Source: Chiloscyllium plagiosum (Eukaryota). From it: a stretch of 26,652 nt of DNA. Shown in pieces: positions 3,458-26,652 of this stretch; positions within the stretch are counted from its first letter, which is position 1; each line of letters starts with the position of its first letter. The notes beneath the pieces are model-generated. The model was not told the DNA's origin, searched no databases, and saw only the letters and a list, made by a program, of their open reading frames with translations. Made by a program: the position numbers and the translations under genes. Location of the stretch: NCBI RefSeq assembly GCF_004010195.1, contig NC_057718.1, positions 84,603,446 to 84,630,097 on the forward strand. Reading direction: 5' to 3'.

Positions 3458-3675
3458 TTTGAGGAGAAAGTGAGGTCTGCAGATGCTGGAGATCAGAGCT
3501 GAAAATGTGTTGCTGGAAAAGCACAGCAGGTCAGGCAGCATCCAGGGAACAGGAGAATCGGCGTTTCAGGCATAAGCCCTTCTTCCTGAAGAAGGGCTTA
3601 TGCCCGAAACGTCGATTCTCCTGTTCCCTGGATGCTGCCTGACCTGCTGTGCTTTTCCAGCAACACATTTTCAGC
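3458..3675. mobile_element. Non-coding fold-back PLE (family A) terminal-repeat insertion with 14-bp TSD
   Basis: Inverted arms 3497-3585 and 3588-3676 (89 bp, 2 mismatches, 2-nt spacer). Direct repeat TAATATCAGTAGTC at 3444-3457 and 3676-3689. Confidence 0.9.
3583..3617 (+). ncRNA. Minimal type I hammerhead ribozyme motif (family A), intact core
   Basis: CUGAAGA (3586-3592), A, GGGC-UUAU-GCCC stem II, GAAAC (3606-3610), GUC triplet (3611-3613); only a short UC/GA helix I. Confidence 0.85.
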
Positions 3676-5046
3676 TAATATCAGTAGTCACTGACAGATT
3701 CAGAGTGCCCTGTGCATAAATAGAAACAGTGCCCTATTGTAGTTGGAAATTGTTAAGCCCATGCCAAAACTGGAAGCAATTAGAAGTTAATTGATTAACA
3801 ATGTTTAAAATATTGTGAACAGTGCATCAGGGAGTGCTTAGTGTGAAACATTTTAAAATGTTCTGGTTTGGTCATGAGCCTTAACAATTTTGGCAAAATA
3901 CTAAATGGCTTTTTGTCATTAGAACGAAGGCTGCATGTGACAGTAAGATGCTCTGACATAACTTAGAAGTAGATCAGAATTGGTGCAGCTGATGTACATG
4001 AGCATGGCTAAGAAATTGAATTGTTTGCATCAGTATAAAAACATCTCTCTACTTGAACCTTTTTTTTAAAGTACAGAATTTTATCTGTGATTTTGGTACT
4101 TTTGAGCTTGTAGGAAGACAAAACCATTCAACAACTAATGCATATTTTGAAGATTTATTTTAAATGATGTTTGCATTTATGCAAATTGTTAACTTGTTTA
4201 ATGTGTATGTTTTGCCTTTGGAGTGGATATTCTTTTGGAAGAAATTGGTCTGAGGTTAGAGTATTTCTAGCAGGGAAGCTAAGTACTTTAGTCTTGTACA
4301 AGTGTAAGAGGTTTACAATTACCTCTGCCATTTTTGTGTACCAAAACAATAGAGATATTTATTGAAACTGGATTTTTAAAAAAAGAGTAGGGAATAGAGT
4401 ACAATGTTTGTCTGCTGGGTACCTTCCACCACTCAGAACAAGTTTCTTCGTGTCCAGTCTTCATTCTATTTCTTCTAAGTTACTTTCCTCTAGAATAGAA
4501 ATATCTGCTTAGTTTGCAGGGAAATTGTAATCCTGAAGGAAATGTGAATTGCCTGATTTCATCAGCAACTTGTAGGTTAGTACTGATATTAAGTTATTGA
4601 CTTTGACCTTGTTTTTGAGCTTGTGTTGGCATGTAAATTGCTGATACAGATGCCTTGAAACTTGCAGATAAGTACAGTTGCATTATTTTTGTTTTAACAG
4701 TTGATTAGCTGAACAATTTATACATAACCTTTTTGTTTAAATCCTAGTTGAATAGGAACCACTTTGCATTTCAGTCTGCTGACCGTTAATTACTGTGCCT
4801 GACTAGGGTTTTTAGGGGTAGAACAAGTTTGTCTGTTTTGGGTTAGAGGGAATATTTTGAAGATAAAAATGTTTGATTCATGGTATGAGCTGAGTACAGT
4901 GGATTTCAGTTTGGCTTCAATTTTTGTGACATGGTTCTGTTTTAGGAAAGAAAAAGCTTATCATGGTAAAGTAGATCACATCTCATTGCGTGTGTAATTT
5001 TTGTTTTGGCATAGGCTAAATTATATATTATTTTGGTTTTCAATAG

Positions 5047-5294
5047 ATGAATATGATGTGCAGGAGGTTGCAATGAATTCAGATGATGTACCCATGAAAG
5101 AAGCAAGACCAATACAGATAGTGTTGGCACATGAAGATAATCATCATTTTGATCTCGATGAAGAATCCTTGGAGCGAATTCTATTGCAAGAACATGTTCG
5201 GGACTTGAATGTTGTGGTTGTCTCTGTGGCAGGAGCATTTCGTAAAGGCAAATCCTTTTTGTTGGACTTCATGTTGCGTTACATGTACAATCAG
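5047..5294 (+). CDS. ATL2: Atlastin GTPase internal coding exon (exon 2-like, P-loop)
   Basis: Encodes ...[62 protein letters not shown], with the atlastin G1 motif [26 protein letters not shown] is ATL2-like rather than ATL1-like. Acceptor ttttcaatag ends at 5046, donor CAG/gtaaga at 5295; 248 nt, phase 1 to phase 0. Confidence 0.92.
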
Positions 5295-5439
5295 GTAAGA
5301 GATTACATGCTGTCAGTTTCTTTTGCATGAGACTTCAATTGTTTTGGAATGTGCATGTTGAAGTATTTTCATTTGCTTAACGATTGTTAATGAGATTGTC
5401 ACTGGAGTGCATTGATCAGTTAGCCATTTTCAAGCATTG

Positions 5440-5800
5440 TTTGGACTGACCTATTAAATGAGACTGGATCGGTTAGGATTATTTTCATTGGGGTTTAGAG
5501 AATGAGGAGATCTTATTGTAACCTGTAAAGTTCTATCAGGACTAGACCAGTTAAGATATTAATGACCAAAGCGTGCAGAACCAGGCGTTATGGTCTAAAA
5601 CACAGGGTAGGCTTTTAGGACTGATGAAAATTTTTTTCTAATTCTGTGTCAGAAAAGCAGTTGAGGCCAACACATTGTTTTCAAGAAGAAATTCAATAGA
5701 GTTCATGTGACTAAAGGGATAAAACATGTGGAGAAAAGCAGGAGCAAGGTACTGAGTTGGATGATCAGCCAACTGGGAGGACTTAGTTCTGTTGCTTCTA
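5440..5800 (+). mobile_element. Degenerate CR1 3' end fragment
   Basis: Similar to 15400-15770 (e.g. GGATGATCAGCC, AAGCAGTTGAGGCC); a further piece of 3' tail is at about 6110-6150. Confidence 0.6.
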
Positions 5801-5809
5801 TTCTAGGGA

Positions 5810-6080
5810 CCTAGATCGTGAAATTTGAATTCACTTAAGATAAAAAGGTCTGGAATTGAGTCTAAAGATGACCTTGAAACAGTGGTTGATTGTCAGAAAA
5901 ACCCATCTAATTCACAAATTTCTTTTTTGAGGAAAAAAATATGCAGCCCTTACTTGGTCTGGTCGACATATGACTTCAGATTTATAGCTGTGTAGTTGAC
6001 TTTTAACTGCCCTGTAAGCAATTAGGGACAGGCAAAAATATTGGCCTCCTGTCCTCGTGTCCCATGAATGAATTGAAAAC
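5810..6080 (+). mobile_element. Degenerate SINE with L2-like 3' end
   Basis: Ends in CCCATGAATGAATTGAAAA and interrupts the CR1 3' end; family recognised from memory only. Confidence 0.45.
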
Positions 6081-6639
6081 AAAAACCACAATCCTGTTGT
6101 TACACCAGGTGTGAAGGACTGAATGACTTACTCCTCCTAGTTTATATTTCTATGCAATCAGGTTGCCTCAATGTTTTACTTGCTGTCATTACTTGGAGAA
6201 CACTTGTTTCTTGGCTCTCGTTTAGAAGTTTTGAGCATTTGGACATTGCAATTTTAAACTTGGAGAATTGTAATATTAAAAGGGCACGGTTGAATTATTT
6301 GAACTTGCTCTACCAAATATGTTTGTTCTTCCTTGCTTTTTTCTTTACAGTGATTACTTTTATAAGTTAGGATAACCTCTCCCCTTGTCCAGATCTCAAT
6401 CACTGCGAGTCTTGATTGTGACTGCAAATGGGTTTTTTTGATTGCAGAGGGGATCACAGTTGATCGTGAGTCTGTCAGACTCTGTAGCCAGTCTCTGTCT
6501 GCTTCTATTGGATCAGTTGCTGAAAATCCTTTTTCAGGAGTTCTTGATTAGCCATTCAGTTCTCAAGTTAATTGTAAGTTATTGTGTCCAAAACAGCACT
6601 GCTGATGTGACTTCTTCCGTAACCATCCACTGTGGTTGA

Positions 6640-7455
6640 CAGTACCCTCCACCTCATCCTACTTATCACCTGTGCTTCCGCCCTTGTCCCTTCCCATCAT
6701 CCTCAACAGTGTGATTGGGTCTCCCTTGGCCTCAACTTTGCATCACACCAGCCTCTAGTGGATCATTCTCCACCATTTCAGACAACTCCGGTAGAGCTCC
6801 AGCCATCACCAAACAGATGTTCCCCTCACTCCTGTTTGTATTTTGCAGGAATTGTTCCTTCCAGGATACCCTAATTCATTCATTGACCACTGATACAACA
6901 TCCCCTTCCCACATAACTGCTGAAGTGCAATCCCTGCCCCTTTACCTACTTACTGTTTGTTATCCAAAGGCTTAAATAGTCTGTTCCAGTAAAGCAGTAT
7001 TTCACCTGTACCACCTCCAATATTGTATTCGCTGCACCCAATGTGGCCTACTCTACACTGGAGAAACCAAACCAGACTGGGTGATGGCTTTGCAGAACAT
7101 CTCCAATCTGTGTGCAAGTGTGACCCTGACCATGCCATAGCCAGCCATTTTAATACAGATTCTGGATCAGTGGTGCTGGAAGAGCACAGCAATTCAGGCA
7201 GCATCCAACGAGCTCGTCGGATGCTGCCTGAATTGCTGTGCTCTTCCAGCACCACTGATCCAGAATCTGGTTTCCAATATCTGCAGTCATTGTTTTTACC
7301 TCATTTTAATACAGAGTCTTGCTTGTGTGCCCACTTGTCTGTCCTCTGTTTGCTGTAGTGTTCCAGTGAATCACAGTACAAAACTCTCATCTTCAGACTA
7401 GGCACTTTACAACCTTCTGGACTTAATATTGAGTTCAGCACCTTCAAAATGTGAA
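6640..7455 (+). mobile_element. Decayed Penelope-like element, GIY-YIG endonuclease region
   Basis: 7021-7105 reads YCIRCTQCGLLYTGETK..RLGDGFAEHL across a frameshift (PLE GIY-YIG with CxxC). Interrupted by the 7160-7301 insertion. Confidence 0.8.
7160..7301. mobile_element. Spacer-less palindromic PLE (family A) terminal-repeat insertion with 14-bp TSD
   Basis: Arms 7156-7212 and 7213-7269 (57 bp, 1 mismatch) centred on GAG|CTC. CATTTTAATACAGA is repeated at 7146-7159 and 7302-7315. Confidence 0.9.
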
Positions 7456-7462
7456 TCAACTC

Positions 7463-7504
7463 CCATTCCTTTCCTTTTCCTTTCCTTTCCTTTCTTTTCC
7501 TTTT
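7463..7504 (+). repeat. (TTTCC)n-like polypyrimidine tract
   Basis: Visible low-complexity sequence. Confidence 0.7.
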
Positions 7505-7519
7505 AGCGTTACTTATTAC

Positions 7520-8670
7520 ATGCTCTGCCACCATGCATCCCCCTGCCTCCACCTCTCTACTGGAACTGTCTGTGCTTTCAAATCGAAGAGGCTTTCCAAT
7601 CCCAAGCATCCCAGATGTCCACCTATTTCGAACAATGTACTTTTTCTACTCCCCTGTCATCCAGACAGCCCTCCACTGCACCACCTCCATTTGCTGCTGC
7701 ACTGCTCTCTACTGCCTCTCCAAACGCAATACAGAGTCCTCCTTGTCCTCACCCTCCATCCTGCGCCAGTCTCTGCATCCAATACATCATCCTTGAACAC
7801 TTCTGCTAACTCCAACTTTATCCCATCGCCAAGAACATCATCTTCCTCTCTCCAAACGTCTGTCTTTCACATGTACCCTTTCCTTCACCATCCTTTGGTT
7901 TGTGCCACTCTACCCACCAACACCCCACCCCCGGACCTGCAGTACCTTCCCCTGCAAATGTAAAAGATGCAAACTCTGCTGGCAAGCCACCCTGCTCACC
8001 TCCATCCAGGGCCCCAATCTGTCCTTCCAGGTAAGACAGAGGTTCACCTGCCTCTTTCCCAACCTAGGTTACTGTATCTGGTGCTCCTGATGTGGTCTTT
8101 ACATCATTGAGACCAAACATAAACTAGGGGCATGTTTTACCAAACATCTCTGCTGAACCCACAAGGGCCAACCTGACCTCGAGTCACCACCCATTTCAAT
8201 TCCCCTTCCCATTCACTCTTTGACATGACCATGCATGACCTCCATTGCCACAGTGAATCAGACTGCAGATTGGGGGAGCAACACCTCATTTTCTGTCTGG
8301 GCAGCCGACAGCCCAGAAGACTCAACATTTGAGTTCTCCAGTATCAAATAATCTCTCTTCCCATTCCCCCCCCCTCCCCAAATTCCTGTGACAAACCCTT
8401 CCTTCCAACTATCAAAGGATTAATTCCTCCTATTGATCAACCAGGCTGTACCCTCTAATTGTGTTCCCCTATCACTACCTCACCATTTGCCCTACCCCCC
8501 AAAAAATCTGTGTTCCCCTTACCCCCACCACAAGACCTGAAGAAGGATCATACCCGAAACGTTGATTTGTTTACCACCTAACGCTGCCTGGCTTGTTGAT
8601 TCCAAAGTAGACAAACAGCCTCCTGTTTGTCTACTTTGGATTCGAGCATTTGCAGTTTTTTTCGCCTCTA
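7520..8670 (+). mobile_element. Decayed Penelope-like element, 3' half with terminal repeat
   Basis: TFPCKCKRCKLC...QVRQRFTC...NLGYCIWCS*CG (zinc knuckle plus GIY-YIG); the terminal repeat carries an HHR motif at 8537. Confidence 0.8.
8534..8567 (+). ncRNA. Hammerhead ribozyme motif, core intact, stem II with one mismatch
   Basis: CUGAAGA (8537-8543), A, GGAU-CAU-ACCC, GAAAC (8556-8560), GUU. Confidence 0.65.
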
Positions 8671-9264: not shown

Positions 9265-9350
9265 CAACTGGAGTCTGAAGTTTTTGGGTTCAAGATAATT
9301 CCAGGATTTGTGCATAAATGCCTTGACACTAAAATTTGTGTAGAAGGTGC
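9265..9350 (+). mobile_element. Deu-domain SINE (SacSINE1-like), 5' part
   Basis: tRNA-like head with B-box-like GGGTTCAAG; joins 10757 once the PLE is removed. Confidence 0.55.
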
Positions 9351-9873: not shown

Positions 9874-10263
9874 NNNNNNNNNNNNNNNNNNNNNNNNNNN
9901 NNNNNNNNNNNNNNNNNNNNNNNNNNNNNNNNNNNNNNNNNNNNNNNNNNNNNNNNNNNNNNNNNNNNNNNNNNNNNNNNNNNNNNNNNNNNNNNNNNNN
10001 NNNNNNNNNNNNNNNNNNNNNNNNNNNNNNNNNNNNNNNNNNNNNNNNNNNNNNNNNNNNNNNNNNNNNNNNNNNNNNNNNNNNNNNNNNNNNNNNNNNN
10101 NNNNNNNNNNNNNNNNNNNNNNNNNNNNNNNNNNNNNNNNNNNNNNNNNNNNNNNNNNNNNNNNNNNNNNNNNNNNNNNNNNNNNNNNNNNNNNNNNNNN
10201 NNNNNNNNNNNNNNNNNNNNNNNNNNNNNNNNNNNNNNNNNNNNNNNNNNNNNNNNNNNNNNN
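9874..10263. other. Assembly gap (390 N)
   Basis: Run of n characters. Confidence 1.
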
Positions 10264-10283
10264 ACTTCAGGCTCTCTGCCTTT

Positions 10284-10318
10284 GTTCTGATGAAGGGCTT
10301 TTGCCCGAAACGTTGATT
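10284..10318 (+). ncRNA. Hammerhead ribozyme motif (family A), intact core
   Basis: CUGAUGA (10287-10293), A, GGGC-UUUU-GCCC, GAAAC (10307-10311), GUU; helix I weak. Confidence 0.8.
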
Positions 10319-10635
10319 TTGCCTGTCCTCGGATGCTGCCTGAATTGCTGTGCTCTTCCAGCACCACTGATCCAGAATCTGGTTTCCAGCATCTGCAGTC
10401 ATTGTTTTTACCTCGTTGATTACTACCATTATAGGGCAAGCCAAAGAAAGAACAGCCAGGGAATTCCTAGAAGCATGGCACTCATCCACAAACTCCATCA
10501 ACAAACACATCGACCTGGACCCAATATACCGGCCACTACAGCGGACAGCTGAAACTGACAACCGGAAGCGGCAGGGACAGGCCACTATAAATGCTGGAGG
10601 AAACACCACAGAAGCGCTTCACAGGAGGCTCCCAA

Positions 10636-10675
10636 GCACTGAGGATGTCACCTAGACAGGGGACGCAACGTTTGC
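10636..10675 (+). ncRNA. Hammerhead motif (family B), probably inactivated
   Basis: GCA-CUGAGGA-U-GUCACC-UAGACA-GGGGAC-GCAAC-GUU-UGC; GAAA is mutated to GCAA. Confidence 0.7.
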
Positions 10676-10756
10676 AACAAAAATGTCCAGCTCAGCGAAC
10701 AGAACCACAACAACGAGCACCCGAGCTACAAATCTTCACCCAAACTTTGAAGGTGC

Positions 10757-11030
10757 TTTTGTCAGATGAGACATTAAATAGGGGTCCTTTGTGCCCTATC
10801 AGGTGGCCATGATTTCTTTTTGAAGAACATTTGGGGTGTGTAACCCTTATCCTTAAACAGAAACAGATTATTTGGTTATCACCTTGCTATTGTGGGGACA
10901 TGTATAAATTTGTTACTGTATTTTCTGTTGTTATAGAGACTACACTCAAGTAGTATTTAATTGATTGATTGTAAGGTGCTTTGGCATAGGAATGTGAAAA
11001 GGTATCATATATAAAGTTCAAATGTTTTAT
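10757..11030 (+). mobile_element. Deu-domain SINE (SacSINE1-like), 3' part
   Basis: CAGATGAGACATTAAA...CAGGTGG...AAACAGATTATTTGGTTATCACCTTGCT...GACTACACTCAA...TATATAAA resembles the remembered DeuSINE consensus. Confidence 0.7.
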
Positions 11031-12486: not shown

Positions 12487-12557
12487 GCATTAGTGGTTCA
12501 GTGGTAAAATGGTACCCTGCCATGTGGCAGGCTTGGGTTTGATTCTCAGCAAATGCA
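12487..12557 (+). pseudogene. tRNA-Gly(GCC) pseudogene
   Basis: 71 nt collinear with the remembered vertebrate tRNA-Gly-GCC, about 15 substitutions. Anticodon loop CTGCCA is retained, B box GGTTCGA has become GGTTTGA, anticodon stem is broken, no CCA, and a T-run follows about 10 nt downstream. Confidence 0.85.
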
Positions 12558-12701
12558 TAGGACTCTTTTCCTTGCCTCCTTGGGGCTTGCTTGTGGTACA
12601 GGGTAGTAGGAGAAAGTGAGTACTGCAAATGCTGGAGATCAGAGTTGAGAGTTTGGTGCTGGAAAAGCATAGCAGTTCAGGCAGCTTGCAAGGAGCAGGA
12701 G

Positions 12702-12737
12702 AATTGACATTTCAGGCATAAGCCCTTCGTCAGGAAT
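12702..12737 (-). ncRNA. Hammerhead motif (family A), partly degenerate
   Basis: Minus strand AUUC-CUGACGA-A-GGGC-UUAU-GCCU-GAAAU-GUC-AAUU. Confidence 0.65.
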
Positions 12738-14292
12738 GAAGCTTGTGGGCCAGGGTGCTAAGAGATAAATGGGAGGGAGTGGGGTTGGGGGGGAAAGGAG
12801 CTGAGAATGCAATAGGTAGATGAAGGTGATAGGGTGGAGTGGGACAGATGGCAAAGACAATGGATAGGTTAAGAGGGCAGTGCTGAGAAGAGAAGCCCAC
12901 ATCTGGTGCAATGGATACAGTAGATGACATTTGTGGAGATGCAGATAAATTTGTTGGATGTGGAAGGATCCTTTGGGGCCTGAGATGGAGATGAGAGGGG
13001 AGGTTTGGGTGCAAGTTTTGCACTCCCTTTGGTGGCAGGGGAAAATGCCAGGAGTGGGCTGGAGGGGGTGTGGATCTGATAAGGTGTCGTAGAGGGAATG
13101 GTCTTTCTGGAATGCTGATGGGAGTGGAGAAGGAAATATATCCCTTATCTGTTTGCAGATGGTGGAAGTGGCAGAGGATGATGCGATGTGTACAGATATA
13201 GGTGAGGACTGGGGGCATCTGTTCTTGTTGCATTGAGTGATGGGGTTCAAGGGAGAAGATGGGCTGGAGGGCATCGTCAAACACATGGGAGGGGTAATTG
13301 CAGTCGTTGAAGAATGAGGCCATCTGGCATTTTCTTTGGTGGAACTGGTCCTCCTGGGAACAGATGAGATATCGGAATTGGGAATAAGGGATGGAGTTTT
13401 TACAGGAGGCAGGATGGGAAGAGGTGTAGTCCAGGTAGCTGTGGGAGTCCATGGGTTTGTAGTAGATGTCTGTGGTTAATTGGTCGCTGGGAGATAGATC
13501 CAGGAAGGGGAGGGAGGTGTCCAAGATGGTTCAGGTGAATTTGAGGTCAGGGTGAAAGGTGTTGGTGGAGTTGATGAACTATTGTGGGAGCATGAAGTAG
13601 CGCTGATAGTCGTTGATGTAGTGAAGGAAAAGGTGGAGGATGGTGACAGTGTAGCTGCGGGAGATGGATTGTTTCATGTACCTGACAAAGAGGCAGGCAT
13701 AACTGCAGCCCATGTGGCTGCCATGGCCACCCCTTTGGTTTGGAGGCAGTGGGAGTATTGGAAGGAGAATTTAAGGGTGAGGACCAGTTCAGCCAAATGG
13801 GTGAAGGTGTTAGTGGAAGGGTGCTTGTTGGGACGGCGTGAAAGGAAAGAAACGGAGGGCTTGGAGGCCTTTGTCATGGCGGATAGATGTGTACAGGGAC
13901 TGGATGTCCATGGTGAAGATAAGTCTTTCTTTGAGGTGGTGAAGGGCATGGGTGGTGTCCCAAACGTAGGTGGAGAGTTCCTGGACTAAGGGAGACAGGA
14001 CGGTGTCAAGGTACGCAGGGATGGGTTCAGTGGGACAGGAGCAGGCTGCGACAGCGGTTGGCCAGGGAAATCAGGCTTGCAAATCTACCGTAGGAGGTAG
14101 TATTGGGCAGTGTGGGGTTGCGGGCAGTGATTTAGGAGGCTGTGGGTAGGAGGTCCCCAGAGGTGATGATGAGGTTTTGGATGGTCTGGGAGATCGTTTG
14201 CTGATGGGCGGTGAGGTCATGGTCGATGGGGCGGTAGGAGGAATGTGAGAGTGGTGCCTAGTTTCAGCAGTGTAGAGGTTGGTTCTCTCTCT

Positions 14293-14462
14293 CTCTCACC
14301 CTCTCACCCTCTCACCCTCTCACCCTCTCACCCTCTCACCCTCTCACCCTCTCACCCTCTCACCCTCTCACCCTCTCACCCTCTCACCCTCTCACCCTCT
14401 CACCCTCTCACCCTCTCACCCTCTCACCCTCTCACCCTCTCACCCCCCCCCCCCCCCCCCCC
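14293..14462 (+). repeat. Perfect (CTCTCACC)x19 tandem repeat followed by C20
   Basis: 8-mer repeated over 14293-14444, poly-C at 14443-14462. Confidence 0.95.
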
Positions 14463-14497
14463 ATCGTCTGCTGGTTTGATGGTGATATTGAGGTTGA

Positions 14498-15838
14498 GTG
14501 GAGGCAGATCCAGTGGATGTAGCGTACCTGGACTTTCAGAAAGCCTTTGATAAAGTCCCACATAGGGGGAGGTTAGTGAGCAAAATTAGGGTGAATGGTA
14601 TTGGGGGCAAAGTACTGACTTGGATTGAAAATTGGTTGGCTGACAGGAAACAAAGTAGTGATAAACTGCTCCCTTTCGGAATGGCAGGCGGTGACCAGTG
14701 GGGTACCCCAGGGATCAGTGCTGGGACTGCAGCTTTTTACAATATATATTAATGATATAGAAGATGGTATTAATAGTAACATTAGCAAATTTGCTGATGA
14801 TACAAAGCTGGGTGGCAGTGTGAAATGTGACGGGTGCTCCGGTTTCCTCCCACAGTCCAAAGATGTGCAGGATCAGGTGAATTGGCCATACTAAATTGCC
14901 CATAGTGTTAGGTAAGGGGTAAATGTAGGGGTATGGGTGGGTTTCGCTTCGGCGGGTCGGTGTGGACTTGTTGGGCCGAAGGGCCTGTTTCCACACTGTA
15001 ATCTAATCTAATCTAATCTAATAATGTGGATAAATGTATGGTTATCCACTTTGGTAGCAAGAACAGGAAGGCAGATTACTACCTAAACGGAGTCATGTTA
15101 GGTAAAGGGGCAGTACAAAGAGATCTGGGTGTTCTTGTACACCAGTCAATGAAGGCAAGCATGCAGGTACAGCAGGTAGTGAAGAAGGCTAATAGCATGC
15201 TGGCCTTCATAACAAGAGGGATTGAGTGTAGAAGCAAAGAGGTTCTTCTGCAGCTATACAGGGCCCTGGTGAGACCTCACCTGGAATATTGTGTGCAGTT
15301 CTGGTCTCCAAATTTGAGGAAAGACATTCTGGCTGTTGAGGGAGTGCAGCGTAGGTTCACGAGGTCAATTCCTGGAATGGCGGGACTATCTTATGTCGAA
15401 AGATTGGAGCGACTGAGCTTGTATACCCTTGGGTTTAGAAGACTGAGAGGGAATCTGATTGAGACTTATAAGATTATTAAAAGGATTGGACACTCTCGAG
15501 GCAGGAAACATGTTTCCGCTGATGGGCGAGTCCCAAACCAGAGGACACAGCTTAAAAATAAGGGGTAGGCCATTTAGGACAGAGATGAGGAGAAACTTCT
15601 TCACCCAGAGAGTGGTGGGTGTGTGGAATGCTCTGCCCCAGAAGGCAGTGGAGGCCCAGTCTCTGGATTCGTTTAAGAAAGAGTTGGATAGAGCTCTCAA
15701 AGGTAGTGGAATCCAGGGTTATGGGGATAAGGCAGGAACAGGATACTGATTGAGGATGATCAGCCATGATCATAATGAATGGTGGTGCAGGCTCGAAGGG
15801 CAGAATGGCCTACTCCTGCACCTATTGTCTATTGTATG
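14498..15838 (+). mobile_element. CR1/HER1-like LINE, 5'-truncated, relatively young
   Basis: [68 protein letters not shown]; 3' tail CCTATTGTCTATTGT. Confidence 0.95.
14831..15022 (+). mobile_element. HE1-like SINE (V-SINE type), 5'-truncated, inside the CR1
   Basis: GGGTGCTCCGGTTTCCTCCCACAGTCCAAAGATGTGCAGG (V-domain) ... GGGCCGAAGGGCCTGTTTCCACACTGT followed by an (AATCT)n tail. Confidence 0.9.
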
Positions 15839-17042
15839 TTGCAAGGGTGGGCGGTTGGAGTGGGTAAGGGTGTTGGAGGGGGTAGTATCCTTGGACTGAG
15901 GGGCCTCTGTTCAAGATCAACCTGTTCCAGGGATGTGTATAACATCTCTGAACAGATTGATTAGGAAAATAGGTTAAATTAATAACTGCCAACTGTACAA
16001 CCATTGGGGGAGATTACTATAGATGAGCTGGAGCAGAGGGTGTGTACACAAATGGAGATTTTGGCAGCAAGTAACTGTGGAGTGGAGTGGTGACCAGTTG
16101 CATCTGACCAATTCCTCCTGTCTGTCCACAGCTGTGTGATTGTTCAACTGCTTGGGAGCCATCTTGTGGGTGTGAATGTTCAGGCAGAAAGTGTTGGACC
16201 TCAAAAGGCAGGAACTGTCAATTTCTTTATCCCTCCAGTAATAACATCTAAAGCTTGCAGGAAACCAGTTTGTTTTCCCTCATCAGTTACTGTAATCTGT
16301 GGCACTGTAAGGAGGTCAGAGACCTTTATTAAAAAAAGGTGTGAACCATTCACCCTGTGTCCTGTATGCAAGTGAATGTGTGCCTGGAGAAAAGATCCAG
16401 AAGCAACATTCTAATCAGCAAAGGAATTATCACGGCAAACCCTGTAATGAGGGATCTCCGAACAGCTTTCCCAGTATTTCCCCCTGACCGTGACACCCAC
16501 CTTTTTTCCTCTGTGTAGAGAATGTGTTTATAAAGAGCTTCGTTTTGACAAGTAGTTATGTTGATAGGTCATTACTGTTTCTGTACTTAAGAAAAACCTA
16601 TTTGTAATAAATAGTCAATGTTCCATGCTTTTTTGACAATTTAAATATATTTTAACTTTGTTTTTGGTAATAGTGGCTTGATCTTAAGCATACTAAAGTG
16701 AAGTGTGTAACACTAAATTTCATGTTTTTTTTAAAAACATTTATAGTTACGTGTATCATGAAGCTAAACTAATCAAAATGACAAATTGTTTCAAATGAAT
16801 GTTTGGGAGACCACAAGAATACCCAAGGATATATGAATGTTGATTTTCTTCTGATTTAAGATAGACAGTAATCACTAGTTCTGTACCTGAGCCAGAGTCA
16901 GATACTGGTTTTTCTTTCTGCTTAAAATCTGTTTGTGAGCCATGACTCTTGTATCAAAACAGAATGATCAAAGTTTGTGTAAAGATTTGTAGCTCGGGTA
17001 CTCCTTGTTGTGGTTCTGTTCACCGAGCTGGGAATTTGTGTT

Positions 17043-17082
17043 GCAGACGTTTTGTCCCCTGTCTAGGTGACATCCTCGGTGC
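17043..17082 (-). ncRNA. Hammerhead motif (family B), inactivated
   Basis: Minus strand GCA-CCGAGGA...GGGGAC-AAAAC-GUC-UGC has two core substitutions. Confidence 0.65.
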
Positions 17083-17412
17083 TTGGGAGCCTCCTGTGAA
17101 GCGCTTCTGTGATCTTTCCTCCGGCATTTGTAGTGATTTGAATCTGCCACTTCTGGTTGTCAGTTCCAGCTGTCCGCTGCAGTGGCCGGTATATTGAATT
17201 CGACTGGGACAACAACACTATTATAGGACAAGCCAAACCGAGAACAGCCAGGAAATTCCTAGAGGCATGGCACTCATCCACAGATTCAATCAATAAGCAC
17301 ATATACCGGACACTGCAACGGACAGCTGGAACTGACAACCGGAAGCGGCAGATTCAAACCACGACAAATGCTGGAGGAAAGATCACAGAAGCGCTTCACA
17401 GGAGGCTCCCAA

Positions 17413-17452
17413 GCACTGAGGATGTCACCTAGACAGGGGACGAAACGTCTGC
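17413..17452 (+). ncRNA. Minimal type I hammerhead ribozyme motif (family B), intact core
   Basis: Helix I GCA/UGC; CUGAGGA (17416-17422); stem II GUCACC-UAGACA-GGGGAC (one mismatch); GAAAC (17442-17446); GUC (17447-17449). Confidence 0.85.
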
Positions 17453-19006
17453 AACACAAGTTCCCAGCTTGGCGAACAGAACCACAACAAAAACAGAATG
17501 ATATATCAACCAGTTGAATAAACTATTTGATTCTTGACATGTTGGTGTATTGACTTACTTACAATATAATATTGTTTCAGAGGAATCTTTGATTTAGATT
17601 TGCCTTGTGCTGCTCAGGAACATTAGGTTTTAGACACTGAAGGGCTGAGCTGTGCAAACAACTGATTTACGTGATGTGCCATCATTTAAGAGGTTTAGGG
17701 ATTTACTACCACAATTGTATTAGTTATAAAATAATAGAGCCACTCAACTTGATATATTTTTAAGTTAGTTCAGTGTGACTGTGCAGGACAAATCATTTTG
17801 AAGTACCATCCTTTTATACATTTTTGTCAAAAATGCAATATCTTAAAAATTGTAATGCTGAAATACCAATAATTAAAAGCCAAACTGAGATACTTTTTAA
17901 GAGGTTCTGTCCAACAAAACTATTTTAATGCATGCAAATATACATTTTGACGAGGGTATTTGATCACAACATTTTAAAAGGTTTTCAAAAGTACAGCTAA
18001 TTGTCATTCAAATGTTAAAAAGATTTTAAAAAGCAAAACATGCCCTTCAATTTTGCTCTGTTCACTAACTATTATTTATTTTAAAGTAATTTGTTTAAAT
18101 AAAATGGTAGTCAAGATTTAGACCATCGTTCATGCTGGCACTTAATATGCTACCTTGGTTAGCTACACTTGACTGCATAGTTTACTGACCACCAACATCC
18201 ATGTAAAATTATAACATGGGTAGAACATAATGGCCTTTGAGCCTGCTCTGCCATTCATTTAAAGTCTTGGAATTTATACTACTTCCTGTTTCATTCTTTT
18301 ATGAATGTCTGTCTCTGAACACAGTATTCAAATGTTTTTCACCATTTAAAAAACTTGCACTCAATTAGTAAGAATAGAAAATTAAAAACCTTCCTTGCAT
18401 ATACAGCATTCTACAGGGAGTCCATTTTAAATTGTTAAAGTAAGCTCTCTTAAAACTATTTTTTACCTTGTAGTTGCTTCTCACTTTAAAGTTGGTGCTT
18501 TATTTCCTTTTTGTCCTTATTTTGAATGCCACTTTCAATGTTAACATCCTTTTTACTACTTGTTGCCTCATGTCACTTGTCAGCAGCAAGGCCTTTTGAT
18601 TCTGCTAGAGTTGGGACTGTTTGACCTTTATTCGCAATCTATTTTTAAAAAATAACTGAGCTGTGGTATAAACTTGGATATAAACTTTGTCTTTTTATTT
18701 CTCTATGCATCCATGTGAGTTTAGTGTAGCTGAGAAGCCATTTTTTTAAACTGTACCACTGATACATTAGCTGAGGAATTTGTACTGTACTATCTTTTGT
18801 AAAAAAAAACTTTACAAGCAGAAGGCCTGCTTTCTCTGGAATTTTCCATGTTTTGCAAGTTACTTTAGCTACGAATACATGCTGTATATAGAATGGTTTT
18901 TCAATACTTACATTTGCTTTTCTGGACAAAAATTGCTTTTGGGAACCGAACTTAGCTTTAACATTGAATTTCACAGGAAACCATGCTTCATTTAAAATTG
19001 TTTCAT

Positions 19007-19296: not shown

Positions 19297-22161
19297 CCAA
19301 GTCATTATTTAAAGTAATTATTTTTCAGGATTGTAATTTTCAAAGAGGATACTCTCCTTGCTTCACCTATTATATTATTGTTCATTCTTAAACTGCCTGT
19401 TTCCAACAGCTTTACTACTTGAGCTTGCTTTTCCCTTCACTTTAATTTGTCAGCAAACATGTGCTGCCTTCAAAGTGGCAAGTATGAGGCACTAACAATG
19501 GTCCTGAGGGCACTCCACTTGTATACCTTTATTTCTCTACTTACTCCACTTTTCTACTTTCTGCTTCTCTGCCTCTTAGTTGCAAGCTGACAGTTGCAAT
19601 TCAATTTTAATGCACTGCAGTTCTTTTTCCTTTTTGTTTCTTTCCCTGAGTGTATGAGTGAACAAGAAAACATCTAGGAACACTACTAGAGCCACTTCGT
19701 TGTGGCCTTTTAATTGTCTTCACCCTTGCACCTGCAACTACATTTACTGAACTAGTAATTTTATACCTTGAAAGTATTATCACATCAGCATAATGTGTCA
19801 GATGACAAAATGGTGCACAGCCTTTACAAGGAAAAGGCATATGCAAATTATTGTGAATCACATCATAAGATGTGCTAACATGAACATTCTTTGTCCTATT
19901 TGAAGTTATTACTTCATACTTTTGTTTTCTCGACAAAAGCTGTGCAGCAGGGGTATAGGTGCTTAGAATCCTGTAAACTTGGCATGTTTATATTTTTTGA
20001 TTAAACACGTGGTCCAACTGTCCTGATCAGTGTCTAAGCTATAGTGTCTGATGCTGTCAGTCAGAAAAGTTTATGGCTGAAATTTTAATGCAGTGTCCTA
20101 AAAACTAAATGTTAAAGTCCATGCAGAGATCCAAATGGAAGCATTAGCTATCATATTTTAAATCTTAAATCCTGGCCTAAATGTTTCAGTGGATGAATGT
20201 GAAAAGGTGAGGTGAGTGATTGGGATTCTACTCCATGGGCAAGTTAAATGAGGAACCTTTTGGGTAAATAACATTGACTTGTCCATAGTTTCTGACTCAG
20301 ACTCTGAAAGGGTCCTAAGGTGCAGTGTGATTGTTCAGAAACACTAAGTTCCACATGTAAATCAGGGCATCCTAATCTGGTCTCTGACTTATTTCTGAAC
20401 TAAAAGGACAAACTTTGAAATCATTCCTCACATAATGTTGTCTGTCTGTTTTGGGGAGGTGGGGGAATTAAATAAAATGGAACACTTTTTAAGAGGAAAA
20501 ACTGAGCAGGTCAGACATTTGTAGAGAGAGGAACCATTATCGTTTGATCTTCTATCAAAACTGGAAAACATTGGAACCCATGCCATGCATTCTTCACTGG
20601 AAAGGAGGGAATATTTGGAACCAAGAAACTTGGCATGTTCTCAACCTTTTTCCTTATACTTCCAATGAAACCTGAGGTGCTGTACTTCCCTCTTTTAATT
20701 AGGCACATTACAGCTTCTGAACTCTGCCCTTTTTTTAATGGCTGCTGTTCTAGCTTTTCTCATTGCATCCAGACCCACTTGTTTTTATCCGATAATCAGC
20801 ATACTTTTCCCTGCACCTTGATTATTTTCATCATTAATAATCTTTTTGCATTCCATCCTGTATGCCTTTCCCTATTGTTTCTTCACATGCTCACCCACCC
20901 CTTTTAAATAAAAGCCTTCCTTTAAAATCTGCTGATCTTTACAACTTTTTCACCTCCCTCACCCGCCTCATCCAAACTGCTATGCCCAATGAGTACTTCC
21001 GTCAGATTCTGTTTTTCAGATTTTCAGCAGCTCTAAAACTTCAATGAAGGTTCTACCAGTTTGGGTAGCGTCATCTTTGAACACAGGTGAATGAACTTGA
21101 CCCAGAGTTGCCTTTCCTGTCTATACTATATACAGCAAAAATTTTATAATCCTGCACCTCTGGAGCCAAGAGTGTGCTGATTAATCAAATATACTGAATG
21201 ATCACTGGAAAATCACTAGAAACGTAATGCGGGGGTATACACATTGCTGTGTAATTTATTTACTGTAAATAATTTTAAATGAAATGTTGCCTGACACAGA
21301 ACTTGTCAGTAGAGCACCTTCTCACTTGCAAATGACTACTCTGACATCGTGAGGATTGTGACAATAAGTAGACTTCCTGTATTTAGGTATATGCCTATTG
21401 TCCATTTATCGAAGGTGCTGGTTAAAATGGTTTGCACTTTTATATACTGAAGCATGGATTTTATTTTTTAAACTCAACAGAACTCTAGTTTGTGTAGCAG
21501 TTTGCTGTAGTTGTGAGCAATAACACAATGGCTAAAGATAAGTTAAATTCTATTTTCAAAACAAAAGTGAACTTTTGCATATTGAATCAATAAATAAAAT
21601 CTTTACATTTACCTCCCATCTGATTTTGATTTTTTTTCTTAAATGTGACTTGATTTGAACTGTTGAATAGTCCATGAATTCCTTTCCTCATGCACTTTGT
21701 AGTAGTTGAAACCGTTGAAATTAAACTTAAATGTTAAGTTTAATTCTGCAGGGCGTGTTTTTGAATTTCAAGTTGAAGATAGTACTGCTTTTGCATCTAA
21801 AAGCAATAAAAACTAATATTGTGAAAAATTAGATCTTATTTGTACAGTCTCTATTGTTCCTTGGTAGCAATTGGTTAATGAAGACATCAAGTCAGTTCAC
21901 TTTTTTATAATAAATTACTCCCATTTACAGTACTCTTGTTCTTGGGCTTCTAGTTTCCTCTGCACAGACTGTGAACTCAAGGTGAACTTGCTGGACCTTT
22001 CAGGTTGATAGAAACAGAATCTCTATTGTTATAGTGCAGGAGGGGGGCATTCAGCTCATCTTGTCTGCAAAGGCTGTCTGAGAGAGCAACTTGCTTAGTG
22101 CCATTCTCATGCTTTCTCAACTCTGCACATGTGTTCTTGTTAGATGGCTACAATAATGCAT

Positions 22162-22197
22162 ATTCCTGATGAAGGGCTTTTGCCTGAAACGTTGATT
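22162..22197 (+). ncRNA. Hammerhead ribozyme motif (family A), core intact
   Basis: AUUC-CUGAUGA (22166-22172), A, GGGC-UUUU-GCCU, GAAAC (22186-22190), GUU, GAUU. The closing pair of stem II is G-U rather than G-C. Confidence 0.75.
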
Positions 22198-22292
22198 TTC
22201 CTGCTCCTCGGATGCTGCCTGATCTGCTGTGCTTTTCCAGCACCATTCTAATCAAGACTCTGGTTTCCAGCATTTGCAGTCCTTGTTTTTAC
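22162..22292 (+). mobile_element. Solo 131-bp PLE family A terminal-repeat insertion with 14-bp TSD
   Basis: CTACAATAATGCAT at 22148-22161 and 22293-22306; the insert begins at the HHR motif. Confidence 0.9.
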
Positions 22293-23119
22293 CTACAATA
22301 ATGCATGCCCATTTTCCATTGCATTTCAGGCAGGTACTGATCTCAAAGTAAATGTTGTAATACATCATCACTTGCCTTTATTTGCATCTTTGCATTTTTA
22401 TTACAGTACAACAATCATGAGACACTTTAATGTAATTGTTGCCTAACTTGATGGAAGTCAGTTTAAAAATAACCTACTCGGGCTTATTGCCTTTGTGTCT
22501 GTTCCCAAATACCAGCTGATAAACAACATGCATCAGTCACTTTGTAACACATCTGAGGTGAATGAGTAACTTGGTCTATATACAAACTAGCAGTGCAGTC
22601 TTATTCACTGGCTTTTTCTGCTGAACAAAGTACCTGATTGTCAATAAGCACTCAGATCCTACCTTCAACATAAACCAGTGAAATTTTCAAGGTTTAGTTA
22701 GCAAGCATTACTCCTTTGGCAACGCAGTCAACCAATACCTGAATTGAGTTGAAGAGCAATTATGTACAGAGGGGAAGGAATATCAGCTGCCATTGACAAT
22801 TGACAATGTATGTGATTGCATGAAAATATTTGATAGTACACATTGATTACCAAATTGTTTAGTTATCTCATAATTGAGATTATTGTTTTATTTTAAACAG
22901 CTGAAGTATTAAGGGAAGGTTTGATTGTAAAGTGTAAAATTGGAGAGGAAAATAATCCTCAAGACAGGATACTGGCTATCTGAAACAAAAACAAAGTGCC
23001 GGAGAAACTCCGCATGTTTGAGTTTCTCAAGTTTTTTTAAATTTGATGTTTTGGTGAAAATTAAGAATTATTTTCACCTACTATCTACCTCAACTGTTCA
23101 CTCCCTTCATTGTCAAGGC

Positions 23120-23330
23120 ACAGCAGCAATAGTGTGCACTCTGTACAAGATGCATTGCAACATTTCGCCATGCCCCCTAGCGTATTACCTTCCAAAACCA
23201 CTTAAGACCAGTACAGTGGATGTATGAGAACACCACAGTCTTCAAGTTCACCTCAAACCTGCACACAGTCCTGACTTGGAGCTATATTGCAATTTTGTCA
23301 CTCTGGGTCAAAATCTTGGAACTCTGAACA
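23120..23330 (+). mobile_element. Degenerate LINE 3' fragment (L2/CR1 group)
   Basis: TACAAGATGCATTGCA...CCTTCCAAAACC...GAACACCAC...CCTGACTTGGA...GGGTCAAAATCTTGGAACTC; family recognised from memory only. Confidence 0.45.
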
Positions 23331-23515
23331 GCGGTGGGTTAAGTGAGTATACAAAGCCACCAATTGGACTGCATTTCACTGCCCATAGCAACATTTGGTT
23401 TATAATGTGCTATGATTTAGCTGATGTTATTACTGGGCATCAGATCCCAGATTGAAATCCAGATGGATATATCATGATTTGGGTTTAAAAAGATAGGGTC
23501 TCGCTGAGATGAAAC

Positions 23516-24020
23516 ATTGTGTGCAGTTTTGGTCGCCATACTATAGGAAGGATGTGGAGGCACTGGAATAGGTGCAGAGGAGGTTTACCAGGATGTTGCC
23601 TGGTATGGTAGGAAGATTGTATGAGGAAAGACTGAGGCACTTGGGGCTGTTTTCATTGGAGAAAAGAAGGTTTAGGGGTGACTTGATAGAGGTGTACAAG
23701 ATGATTAGGGGTTTAGATAGGGTTGACCATGAGAACCTTTTTCCACGTATGGAGTCGGCTATTACGAGGGGGGCGTAGCTTTAAATCAAGGGGTGGTAGG
23801 TATAGGACAGATGTTAGGGGTAGATTCTTTACTCAGCGAGTCGTGAGTTCATGGAATGCCCTGCCAGTAGCAGTGGTGGACTCTCCCTCTTTATGGGCAT
23901 TTAAGCGGGCATTGGATAGGCATATGGTGGATAGTTGGCTAGTGTAGGTTAGGTGGGCTTAGATCGGCGCAACATCGAGGGCCAAAGGGCCTGTACTGCG
24001 CTGTATTTTTCTATGTTCTA
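23516..24020 (+). mobile_element. CR1 LINE 3' fragment
   Basis: CVQFWSPYYRKDVEALE*VQRRFTRMLPGM...RFFTQRVVSSWNALP; (TTCTATG) tail. Confidence 0.92.
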
Positions 24021-24741
24021 CATCATGTTGCAATTTAATTTTAATAAAAGGAAGTTTATTAAGCATATTCTATGGTTTATTCTATTTTATTTTCACTTTG
24101 TCTGCTTATAGCACAAACTCAGTTTTAAAGGTACAATAACCATAAACATAAGTTTTTAAACAATCACTTGTACAGTACCTAGCAGTATCCCTTGTACAAT
24201 ACCTTTTCTCAAATCCCTTCCTCTAGTACAAAGTTCAGAGAAACTGACTTGAAGGTAATGTAATTTCTGTATTCTTTCCTCTCAGAAGTACTGCTCTATG
24301 TAACTATCCCCATCCAAGGACTACACACAAATGTGCAACTGAAAATATATCTGAAACAACAACCTCTCCCTCTGACTTATGGGTATTTCCTTTTTGAGTA
24401 CTGCCATAAGTTTCACCAACTTCTCCAAAATAGCAGGTGACAGAAGACTAAACATTCAGTGCACTTATTGTAATCCGTAAATGTGAGGGCCACATCACAG
24501 TGCCTTTTCTGAACATCCTCTAGAAGCACTCCACTCCACAATCGTTCTAAGTAATCTCTCCCTCCTTGAGTCTTGTTGCCAGTGCCAGTGAAGGCAAGCT
24601 GCTATCACAGGATAAGAATTCTGTGCATCAAGCAGACGGAACACAGTAAAAGTCTGCCATGTGTCCACCTATTTTTTACCCCCTGCCCTTGATCAAAAAC
24701 AGTTGCACCAATTGGTGGAAACCAAAGTCCTGAGCCCACTC

Positions 24742-25820
24742 AACTATATCAGTGATTTGGATGAGAATATACAAGGCATGATTAGTAAGTTTGCTGATGA
24801 CACTAAAATAGACAGTATTGTGGATAGTGAGAAAGGTTATCAGAAATTCCAGCAGGAGCTTGATCAGCTGGGGAAGTGGGCCGAGAAATGACAAATGGAG
24901 TTTAATATAGATGAGTGTGAGGTCTTGCATTTTGGAAAGTCAAATCAAGGTAGAATTTTCATGGTAAATGGTAGTGCCTTCAGGAGTGTCGTGGAGTAGA
25001 GTGATCTTTTGAGTTTAGGTTCATGATTCTCTGAAGTGGAGTCACAGGTAGACAAGGCAGTGAAGAAGGCCTTTGACACACTGGCCTTCATCCGTTGGGG
25101 CATTGAGTATACAAGTTGGAAGGTTATGTTGCAGTTATACAGGACGTTGGTGAGTCCGCACTCGGAGCATTATGATCACTTTTGGTCACCTTGCTATAAG
25201 AAGCATGTTATTAAGCTGGAAAAAAGCAGAAGAAATTTGCAAGGATATTGCCTGAACTCAATGGTGTGAATTATGGGGAGAGGTTGGACAACTAGACTTT
25301 TTTTTTCTTCAGAGCTTAGGACACTGAGTGGGGAACCTTTTTATAGAAGTGTATAAGATCATGAGACATGGATAGGGTGAATGCACTCAGTCTTTTTCCC
25401 AGGCTTGGGGTATTGAGGACTAGAGTGCCGCAGTTTAAGGTTAGAGGGGAAAGAATAAAAGGGAACCTAAAGGGCATTTTTTTTAAAAACCATTTGGTAT
25501 GCATATGGAATGAGTTGCCAGTGTAAGTGGTTGAGGTGGATACATTAACATTTAAAAGGCATTGGACAAATACATGGATAGGAAAGGAATAGAGGATATG
25601 GGAGTAGAGAGTATGGGTGCTGGAACAGCACATCAGGTGAGGCAGCATAGAGGAGCAGGAGAATCGATGTTTTGGGCATAAGCCCTTTATCAAGAATCAT
25701 ATGGGCCAAGTGCAGAGGATATGCACTTCGATGGATTTGGGTGAAGTGTAGAGAAATGGGGTTAACGTGGACAGACATTTTGGTTGGCATGGACCCATTT
25801 GGGCCAAAGGGTACCGTCTC
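24742..25820 (+). mobile_element. CR1 LINE 3' fragment, decayed
   Basis: YISDLDENIQGMISKFADDTKI, LYRTLVSPHSEHYDHFWSP; several stops. Confidence 0.9.
25603..25698 (-). mobile_element. Short PLE family A terminal-repeat insertion with degenerate HHR, inside the CR1 3' end
   Basis: Minus strand AUUC-UUGAUAA-A-GGGC-UUAU-GCCC-AAAAC-AUC; ATATGGG is duplicated at 25596-25602 and 25699-25705. Confidence 0.75.
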
Positions 25821-26024
25821 CGTTTTAGGACTCAAACTCTCACTTTTGAGAGTACTTTACATCCTTGCTGTTTGGTTGAAAGGCGTTGTGGTCTGTCTTG
25901 CAAGAATTTTCTCTACAGTCATCATTGTCCTCTGAGGGAGAGCTTATGAGCCCAAATGTGACCTTTGCAACCCCCATTGAGAGTTGGTAACCCACAGTTT
26001 TGGATCTGCTGTGTATAGGTTTAA

Positions 26025-26292
26025 CATCCTAGGACAGGCTAAACAGAGACACGCACAGGAATTCTTAGAGGTCTGGCATTCAAACCAGAACTCCGTCAAT
26101 AAACACATTGATAAATGGGGTTCAAATTAATTTCTCAGAAAAAGAACCGGAAATTATATCATCCACCCTAAGAGATCAAGACTCACTAATAGAAAGCAGC
26201 TGCCACCGAAAGCTTACTAATGATGTTACCTATCATGGTGATGGAACGTCTGAAAACAAACCTGCCAGCTCAGTGAGCAAACTTACAACCTG
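26025..26292 (+). mobile_element. Older family B-related PLE 3' fragment with degenerate HHR (26214-26253)
   Basis: ILGQAKQRHAQEFLEVWHSNQNSVNKHI; UUA-CUAAUGA-U-GUUACC-UAUCAU-GGUGAU-GGAAC-GUC-UGA. Confidence 0.75.
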
Positions 26293-26470
26293 GATAGTTA
26301 AGGAATGTTGCGATCCCAAGCTGGCTTTTAATGCTGAGGTGCTATTGCTTTTACTCAGCAATTTGAGAACCAGGGGAATCCTTAACAGGATTTTTGACGA
26401 AGGGTGAGTGGTGACCTTGGTGGTTTATAAAATCATGAGGGGCATGGGTAGGGTAAATAGGCAAGGTTGG

Positions 26471-26652
26471 AAATGTGTTGCTGGAAAAGCGCAGCAGGTC
26501 AGGCAGCATCTAGGGAACAGGAGAATCGACGTTTCGGGCATAAGCCCTTCTTCAGGAATGAGGAAAGTTTGTCCAGCAGGCTAAGATAAAAGGTAGGGAG
26601 GAGGGACTTGGGGGAGGGGCGTCGGAAATGTGATAGGTGGAAAGAGGTCAAG
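26471..26652 (-). mobile_element. Young PLE family A terminal repeat, runs off the window end
   Basis: Nearly identical to 3503-3585, continuing into purine-rich upstream sequence. Confidence 0.88.
26524..26559 (-). ncRNA. Minimal type I hammerhead ribozyme motif (family A), intact
   Basis: Minus strand AUUC-CUGAAGA-A-GGGC-UUAU-GCCC-GAAAC-GUC-GAUU. Confidence 0.85.

Follow-up and report, generated by a model that had tools for sequence, protein, structure and literature searches.

Probable minimal hammerhead motifs of the Penelope type in highly repeated retroelement modules of Chiloscyllium plagiosum

Hammerhead motifs of Penelope-like retroelements (PLEs) have been known since 2014. Here we describe a stretch of 26,652 nt from the genome of Chiloscyllium plagiosum (contig NC_057718.1, positions 84,603,446 to 84,630,097; hereafter the window), in which a motif of this known kind, correctly recognised in a first-pass annotation, recurs in repeated sequences. 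The window holds the 3' modules of PLEs, which belong to two subfamilies (A1 and A2) of one family, A, to a second family, B, and to one older remnant (Table 1). The scale is notable: the 3.56-Gb assembly contains 58,974 exact copies of one 27-mer of the motif, compared with no occurrence of a reversed control, which is far above the published counts of approximately 4,000 copies in the coelacanth and approximately 9,000 in the frog Xenopus (Cervera & de la Pena 2014, PMC4209133).

Motif sites, modules and carrier element

A strict descriptor of the motif (CTGANGA-N-GGGC-N3-6-GCCC-GAAAC) matched the window at 3586(+), 10287(+) and 26555(-), and matched none of 100 shuffled sequences. When up to three mismatches were permitted, seven sites were found (shuffle expectation 0), the additional ones being 3563-3587(-), 12709-12733(-), 22166(+) and 25669-25693(-). 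The eighth site, 8537(+), is genuine yet degenerate (CTGAAGA-A-GGAT-CAT-ACCC-GAAAC-GTT), with a broken stem II and the flanks of another family. All eight positions listed by the first-pass annotation therefore exist: three match exactly, four with one to three changes, and one is degenerate. The core, stem II, the ACGU palindrome and the cut triplet are all intact in only three of them, namely 3586 and 26555 (both with GUC) and 10287 (GUU). The copies at 12733, 25693 and 3587 have decayed, chiefly at CpG dinucleotides.

The motif forms the opening segment (approximately 34 nt) of a repeat of approximately 135 nt. Two such repeats make up a head-to-head inverted pair at 3497-3585 and 3588-3676, with 98% complementary arms of 89 nt that lie 2 nt apart. 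A stretch that had been described as a truncated mirror copy (3556-3585) is the left arm of this pair; it lacks C3 and U4, and GCC replaces GUC. A weak Rfam match to mir-3127 (3528-3645) merely reflects the hairpin of this foldback. The foldback at 7142..7283 is 96% identical in sequence to 10326-10417. The intact family B hammerhead, 17416-17449(+), reads CUGAGGA-U-GUCACC-UAGACA-GGGGAC-GAAAC-GUC and contains the stop codon (TAG) of the open reading frame (ORF) inside loop II. In the young copy at the end of the window, the presumed first base of short copies is the A at 26559. Almost every copy in the window is a dead relic, either 5'-truncated, decayed at CpGs or locked in a foldback, and hence not a working ribozyme.

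Table 1. Hammerhead-bearing and related modules of Penelope-like elements in the window.
Position	Strand	Feature	Hammerhead or other details
3462..3587	-	Family A1 3' module, full arm with tail of ~40 nt	Hammerhead 3560-3587, 5'-truncated (AGGAAGA for CUGAAGA) and decayed (GCCU; GCC for GUC)
3586..3676	+	Family A1 partial arm without tail, head-to-head with the arm at 3462..3587	Intact minimal hammerhead 3586-3613; predicted cut 3613/3614
7142..7283	.	Family A2 module foldback	Starts ~14 nt 3' of the cut site; no hammerhead core; 71-nt arms, 90%, 0 nt apart
8537..8568	+	Degenerate hammerhead-like motif of another, older family	Core boxes present; stem II broken (GGAU/ACCC)
10287..10417	+	Family A2 module, adjoins assembly gap 9874-10263	Hammerhead 10287-10314, core intact, GUU triplet
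10425..10771	+	Family B (second Penelope-like family), 3' part	End of nuclease reading frame (P0001); decayed hammerhead 10639-10672 (GCAAC, GUU)
12606..14000	-	Family A copy with broken reading frame	Reverse transcriptase, C-x-C-x2-C linker, GIY-YIG start (NVIYCIHCTRCGLL), then deletion; decayed hammerhead 12706-12733 (GCCU, GAAAU, GUC-A); tail reaches 12606
16947..17490	.	Family B inverted pair	Intact hammerhead 17416-17449(+); decayed mirror 17046-17079(-) (CCGA, GACAAAAC)
22162..22296	+	Solo family A2 module, begins with ATTC 4 nt before C3, flank unrelated	Hammerhead 22166-22193 (G-U at 10.1-11.1, GUU)
25594..25697	-	Decayed solo family A module, begins with ATTC	Hammerhead remnant 25666-25693 (UUGAUAA, CCCA-AAAC-AUC)
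26430..26652	-	Young family A1 copy with native upstream sequence, runs off the window	Intact hammerhead 26528-26555; predicted cut 26528/26527

The family A modules were assigned to PLEs because of the position of the motif behind a frame of the reverse transcriptase (RT) and GIY-YIG nuclease type, the classes of their 3' tails, and the presence of inverted truncated copies. Upstream of the hammerhead at 12733(-), the RT, linker and nuclease parts given in Table 1 are read jointly from three frames. Two copies at other loci (L002 and L005) encode ...YCIRCTRCGLLYIGET...EHFNSPSHS...LGTLQPQGMNTDF followed by a stop codon, and the hammerhead lies approximately 180-190 nt downstream. Since the hammerhead is also located approximately 95-100 nt upstream of the element end, the order is ORF, 3' untranslated region, hammerhead, end. 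Among the ORFs of the fetched copies, RVT_1 gave weak Pfam scores of 28.1 and 24.2 bits (cut-off 29.6) and GIY-YIG no Pfam match; a Pfam search of the 45 ORFs of the window returned one exon of a guanylate-binding protein (GBP) and one RVT_1 fragment, and nothing else. In the ESM Atlas, a 525-aa frame was nearest to clusters with HTH_animal, RVT_1 and GIY-YIG domains (0.96, 203 of 256 features), which serves as a lead only. In blastn alignments of the sampled loci, the copies have two classes of 3' end that are approximately 40 nt apart (the 'tail'), and adjacent inverted 5'-truncated copies are present both in the window and at these loci; both features are described as hallmarks of PLEs (PMC8557442, PMC11167929). 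PLEs have been reported from all vertebrate lineages, including sharks (PMC4350176, PMC8455134), and hammerheads from all PLEs examined in the survey of PMC4209133.

The first-pass annotation had placed the motif in a terminal repeat of the element. The location in a 3' module behind an RT/GIY-YIG-type frame stands, whereas a complete copy of the form repeat-ORF-repeat was found at none of the fetched loci. Three candidates for such copies were rejected: long open frames proved to be runs of N, locus L013 holds a PLE interrupted by a long interspersed element (LINE), and locus L036 consists of two unrelated copies. A run of 390 N (9874-10263) directly precedes the hammerhead at 10287, and the interiors of young copies at four loci (L011, L012, L014 and L015) read N for about 800-1,060 nt.

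Contigs assembled from the runs of three other organisms (X1, X6 and X8) contain the same module with 90-99% identity, so the family is common to related species. Depth in these contigs falls where the hammerhead has its 5' border, as it does in the window (see below).

Hammerhead plan, conservation and evidence on cleavage

Family A can be read as a type I hammerhead with the segments UC, CUGA(A/U)GA, A, GGGC-UU(A/U)U-GCCC, GAAA, C-G-U, C/U and then GA. Beyond the elements used in a search descriptor, the minimal hammerheads of PLEs are marked by covarying consensus families, a base between positions 9 and 10.1, the pair G10.1-C11.1 and a palindrome at 15.2-16.2 (PMC4209133). All four marks were found in the motifs of the window and the fetched loci. 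A generic hammerhead descriptor, applied to 272,753 nt (the window and the fetched loci), yielded 63 matches in at least five families with different stems. Stem II and helix I are GGGC/GCCC and UC/GA in family A, GUC..GAC and GCA/UGC in family B, GGAG(C)/(G)CUCC and CAC/GUG in family D, and GUUACCU/AGGUAAC and CCA/UGG in family E; family C, a single old copy, has the stem II AGGU/ACCU and a decayed palindrome (ACAU). A helix III of its own is absent from the motif; its place is taken by the palindrome ACGU (families A, B and E) or AGCU (family D). The core boxes CUGANGA and GAAA, in type I order, are intact at three of the eight family A sites of the window and in the family B motif at 17416. 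The unpaired base between A9 and G10.1 is A in 63 of 64 family A copies as well as in families D and C, and U in families B and E. Stem II is paired in five differing sequences and is closed by G10.1-C11.1 in all families except the single old copy of family C, which has A-U.

On this evidence, we consider it probable that the motif is a PLE minimal hammerhead that opens the 3' end module of a retroelement. The identity proposed in the first-pass annotation, a minimal type I hammerhead of the PLE type with a palindrome, is thus borne out by the published marks and by the position of the site behind an RT and GIY-YIG-type frame. A chance resemblance, i.e., a repeat that merely happens to hold CUGANGA and GAAA, would agree with the silence of the Rfam models (see below) and is hardly credible, given that the marks that were not searched for (the bulge, G10.1-C11.1, the palindrome, the NUH triplet and the complementary bases of helix I) are all present and recur in unrelated families.

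The two subfamilies differ at N7, the loop, H17 and position 1.5 (A/UUAU/GUC...GAUUC in A1; U/UUUU/...GAUUU in A2). Genome-wide there are 49,855 cores of A1, of which 29,770 are exact copies with ATTC, and 30,196 exact copies of A2. Decay was assessed in 64 copies with at most four changes in the motif, exclusive of the diagnostic positions. Six CpG positions (11.1, G12, 15.2, 16.2, H17 and 1.1) hold 51 of the 115 non-majority letters. The core is unprotected in individual copies and decays fastest at CpGs. The earlier view that a fixed core next to a varying N7 and loop indicates constraint was therefore not upheld: N7 and the loop mark the subfamilies, and the core of older copies decays. 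Constraint is evident only between families, because five families keep the plan despite unrelated stems while single copies decay. The three CpG sites of the motif (G12, 15.2/16.2 and the cut site) also account for the rapid loss of ribozyme cores in a vertebrate genome that is methylated.

If the motif behaves like the PLE hammerheads described so far, two copies of it would pair through ACGU, and each would then cut the other strand after GUC or GUU, probably slowly and aided by the protein of the element. In a master element, such cutting would trim a long precursor RNA. Minimal hammerheads cleave weakly and only as dimers (PMC4209133), and the anole ribozyme needs the protein of its element (PMC11167929). 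Self-cleavage of the motif in this animal is what we infer from these systems.

Several results, together with the missing repeat-ORF-repeat copy, weigh against the motif being a working PLE hammerhead. Helix I, which usually has about 4-5 pairs, consists in family A of C-G, U-A, U.U and A-U (2+1 pairs) and in families B, D and E of three pairs; a helix I of two pairs has been published for a variant of Drosophila virilis (PMC4209133). The Rfam hammerhead models gave no match at the gathering score, and neither a limit of E<=10 for the entire window nor a search of 91-nt pieces produced one, so that Hammerhead_1, which the first-pass annotation had named as a check, remained silent in the window at every threshold tried. 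A genome-wide search with the same model (RF00163) also gave no match, but control searches were equally silent. Canonical type I features, i.e., a helix III hairpin and a covariance-model match, are accordingly lacking. Folding with ViennaRNA assigned -10.5 kcal/mol to the double-hammerhead dimer and -27.3 kcal/mol to the structure of minimum free energy, and the addition of helix I worsened the energy of the dimer from -18.9 to -10.5. The structure of minimum free energy uses a competing quasi-palindrome of 13 nt (GAAACGUCGAUUC), which would bury G12-A14. In RNA, 1,716 reads with at least 90% identity fell on the repeat, on both strands; they showed no pile-up of read ends at 26528/26527 and a flat depth across the cut site, in about 2% of one single-cell poly(A) run, a library type poor at showing RNA ends. 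Among 86 alignment pieces, with 11 candidate starts near the cut inspected, only one clean genomic copy (L034:9500) begins exactly at G1.1. In the anole element, moreover, hammerhead mutants insert unchanged in vitro and no reads end at the cut site (PMC11167929).

A cluster of blastn starts at reference positions 435-442, which had suggested copies starting at the cut site, was traced on inspection to a deletion, to other families and to partner arms, apart from the single clean case. An alternative hammerhead cutting at CUC/AUUC was discarded, as helix I would not fit and a matching enzyme strand is lacking. The quasi-palindrome GAAACGUCGAUUC is found at 26528-26540 of the window and in all copies of family A; judging from the predicted fold, it may act as an off-switch of the ribozyme, or it may be due to chance.

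The 5' boundary of copies and alternative explanations

The copies have a sharp 5' boundary, which offers a testable handle on the start of PLE RNAs and on the origin of inverted copies, two questions that PLE papers describe as unresolved. The boundary was studied in the window and in 20 regions, each of 10 kb with one of the first 20 exact matches of contig C1 at its centre, a sample biased to young copies. The blastn starts peak at reference positions 400-406, i.e., 1-7 nt before C3 (position 407). Of 63 cores, 24 have kept the native upstream sequence, 24 lie at foldback junctions, where the exact joint varies among the pairs, nine are solo units that begin at ATTC and have unrelated flanks, two start within 2 nt of C3, and four are unclear. 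Ten head-to-head pairs have kept both cores (20 of 64 cores), usually with one full arm that includes the tail and one partial arm. Genome-wide, the native TCATTC is present in only 17,741 (36%) of the A1 cores, and in about two thirds of them the native sequence is lost within 6 nt upstream of C3; an extra G or a head-to-head joint is seen in many of these. The base before ATTC in the 12,029 non-native A1 copies is G in 4,874 (40.5%), C in 3,936 (32.7%, by subtraction), A in 2,278 (18.9%) and T in 941 (7.8%). At 26559, RNA and contig depth is reduced 4- to 5-fold and the loose ends are diverse; joints to the opposite strand recur at 26547-26559 in the same data. A 3' splice site at the boundary was rejected because no AG is present there.

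Many perfect GGAATTCC junctions exist in which the two arms share the terminal AT (e.g., G000:C1:18547209-18547254). They suggest that snap-back into head-to-head pairs is aided by the self-complementary AT at the end. A second recurrent foldback (approximately eight copies, e.g., L011:5374-5750; also at L019, L022 and L033) has its start close to the ORF end (reference position 192) and is preceded by the following ~190 nt in inverted orientation, with an identical joint every time. This suggests a non-autonomous subfamily that spreads together with its hairpin.

As our best guess, the boundary would arise where transcription begins, at the A of TCATTC/TTATTC, with the cDNA then snapping back. 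This explanation was favoured because both subfamilies fit an initiator and because Penelope has an internal promoter with an initiator and a downstream promoter element. It leads to the alternative that fares best next to the ribozyme: the motif would act at the DNA level, by itself or in addition to the ribozyme, as an internal core promoter that yields short, retro-copied RNAs, which we regard as a tenable but less probable account. With a start 4 nt upstream of C3, the ACGT of GAAACGUC would occupy +28 to +31, the place of the downstream element in fly LINEs and Penelope. The RNAs from this start to the element end would be copied back as 135-nt units with the hammerhead first, and snap-back would generate the head-to-head foldbacks.

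The pile-up of 5' ends, the solo units from ATTC, the foldback junctions with varying joints, the drop in depth and the low share of native TCATTC are all consistent with such a promoter. The initiator consensus is YYANWYY, and both TCATTCC (A1) and TTATTCC (A2) match it. An extra, cap-derived G at the 5' ends of copies is known from the LINE literature, and the frequent G before ATTC in non-native A1 copies fits this pattern. In D. virilis, Penelope possesses a TATA-less internal promoter with an initiator and RGACGTGY (PMC2377424). The start pile-up is, however, absent from the read mapping in the single-cell poly(A) run, and the excess of G is small in A2 (1,565 G versus about 1,270 A). The G bias could also be explained by joint formation or target preference, and ACCAG is common to two flanks. 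Moreover, nothing at the equivalent place in families B, D and E matches the initiator, the covarying stems indicate a role at the RNA level, and copies truncated at ATTC would be without an upstream promoter.

More specifically, and more doubtfully, the hammerhead module may double as the 5' end of the transcription unit, with the initiator TCA+1TTC (A1) or TTA+1TTC (A2) and ACGT at +28 to +31. If true, capped RNAs of approximately 95-135 nt with a 3' recognition site would have been retro-copied by the tens of thousands, as solo units or as snap-back hairpins, and most hammerhead copies in this genome would descend from short promoter-proximal RNA instead of truncated full-length RNA. The ribozyme would then remove a cap-bearing leader of 32 nt.

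An unlikely alternative is that the hammerhead is a passenger without a role in transposition, linked to a 3' recognition module, and that the short units are plain 5' truncations. Naiad and Chlamys PLEs thrive without hammerheads, and the idea that hammerheads parasitise PLEs has been raised (PMC8557442). The normal insertion of the anole hammerhead mutants in vitro (PMC11167929) and the low in vitro activity of minimal hammerheads (PMC4209133) point in the same direction. The conservation of core, bulge, palindrome and paired stems in five families is nevertheless hard to explain without selection on master copies, and random truncation leaves the sharp 5' end 4 nt before C3 unexplained. Still far less probable is a retrozyme-like nature of the units, in which non-autonomous elements would spread in the form of small circular RNAs via double cleavage of tandem repeats: vertebrate non-LTR (long terminal repeat) retrozymes have been linked to PLE terminal repeats, one chondrichthyan included (10.64898/2026.07.22.740005, a 2026 preprint), but no tandem arrays were found among 64 cores in 226 kb, where the closest neighbours on the same strand are 394 nt apart, and no back-joined form with a cut-site junction was found among the RNA reads.

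Related systems and neighbouring features

Read as a PLE minimal hammerhead, the motif shares with the published examples the type I topology, the core boxes, the unpaired base after A9 and the pair G10.1-C11.1 (PMC4209133; Lunse, Weinberg & Breaker 2017 via PMC6765202), as well as a palindrome that permits dimers in place of helix III, the mostly scattered occurrence as solo copies and opposite-strand pairs, and the presence of many consensus families in one genome (PMC4209133). It differs in its helix I, which has 2-3 pairs instead of the usual 4-5 and resembles the two-pair variant of D. virilis, and, in family A, in a stem II of 4 bp compared with 7-8 bp in the schistosome families (PMC4209133). 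The main text of that survey names no cartilaginous fishes, which may be listed in its supplements. A literature search on Penelope hammerheads in sharks, which did not cover the supplements of papers, returned only a review in which 'shark' describes the shape of a fold. The hammerheads of Rfam Hammerhead_1 (RF00163; newts, schistosomes, crickets) have the same core and type I helix order, and cleavage depends on dimers in the newt and schistosome cases; the helix III hairpin and the loop-loop contacts of this model are absent here.

The Poseidon element PAc of Anolis carolinensis (Frangieh et al. 2024, PMC11167929) likewise has a hammerhead within a repeat module, no RNA-seq ends at the cut site and a 'tail' of approximately 40 nt, which results there from two start sites of reverse transcription. 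The AUG in stem-loop II of A1 recalls the start codon of PAc at stem II, whereas A2 has no AUG there. The ORF of PAc starts in the hammerhead, unlike the present elements, in which the motif follows approximately 180-190 nt after the ORF stop. The C-x-C-x2-C linker before the nuclease, read from the frames and compared with PMC8557442 without a tree, points to the Neptune/Nematis type rather than to Poseidon. The Penelope element of D. virilis (Schostak et al. 2008, PMC2377424; PMC4209133) resembles the family A elements in an initiator-like start near the hammerhead and in inverted and direct partial copies. There, a 75-nt intron separates the start from the hammerhead, whereas the presumed start lies 4 nt from C3 here.

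Within the window, an ORF at 4998-5330(+) strongly matches the N-terminal domain of guanylate-binding proteins (Pfam GBP, E 1.3e-12) and probably represents an exon of a host GBP gene; the repeats would therefore lie in or beside this gene. A tRNA-like sequence at 12487-12557(+) (Rfam tRNA, 31 bits, just above the cut-off) is located approximately 50 nt past the tail of a family A copy and is likely the head of a tRNA-derived short interspersed element instead of a working tRNA. A microsatellite with the 8-nt unit (CTCTCACC)n extends from 14285 to 14470 (about 20 units, followed by a run of C), and an RT fragment of another retroelement is present at 14619-14894(+) (RVT_1, 28.8 bits).

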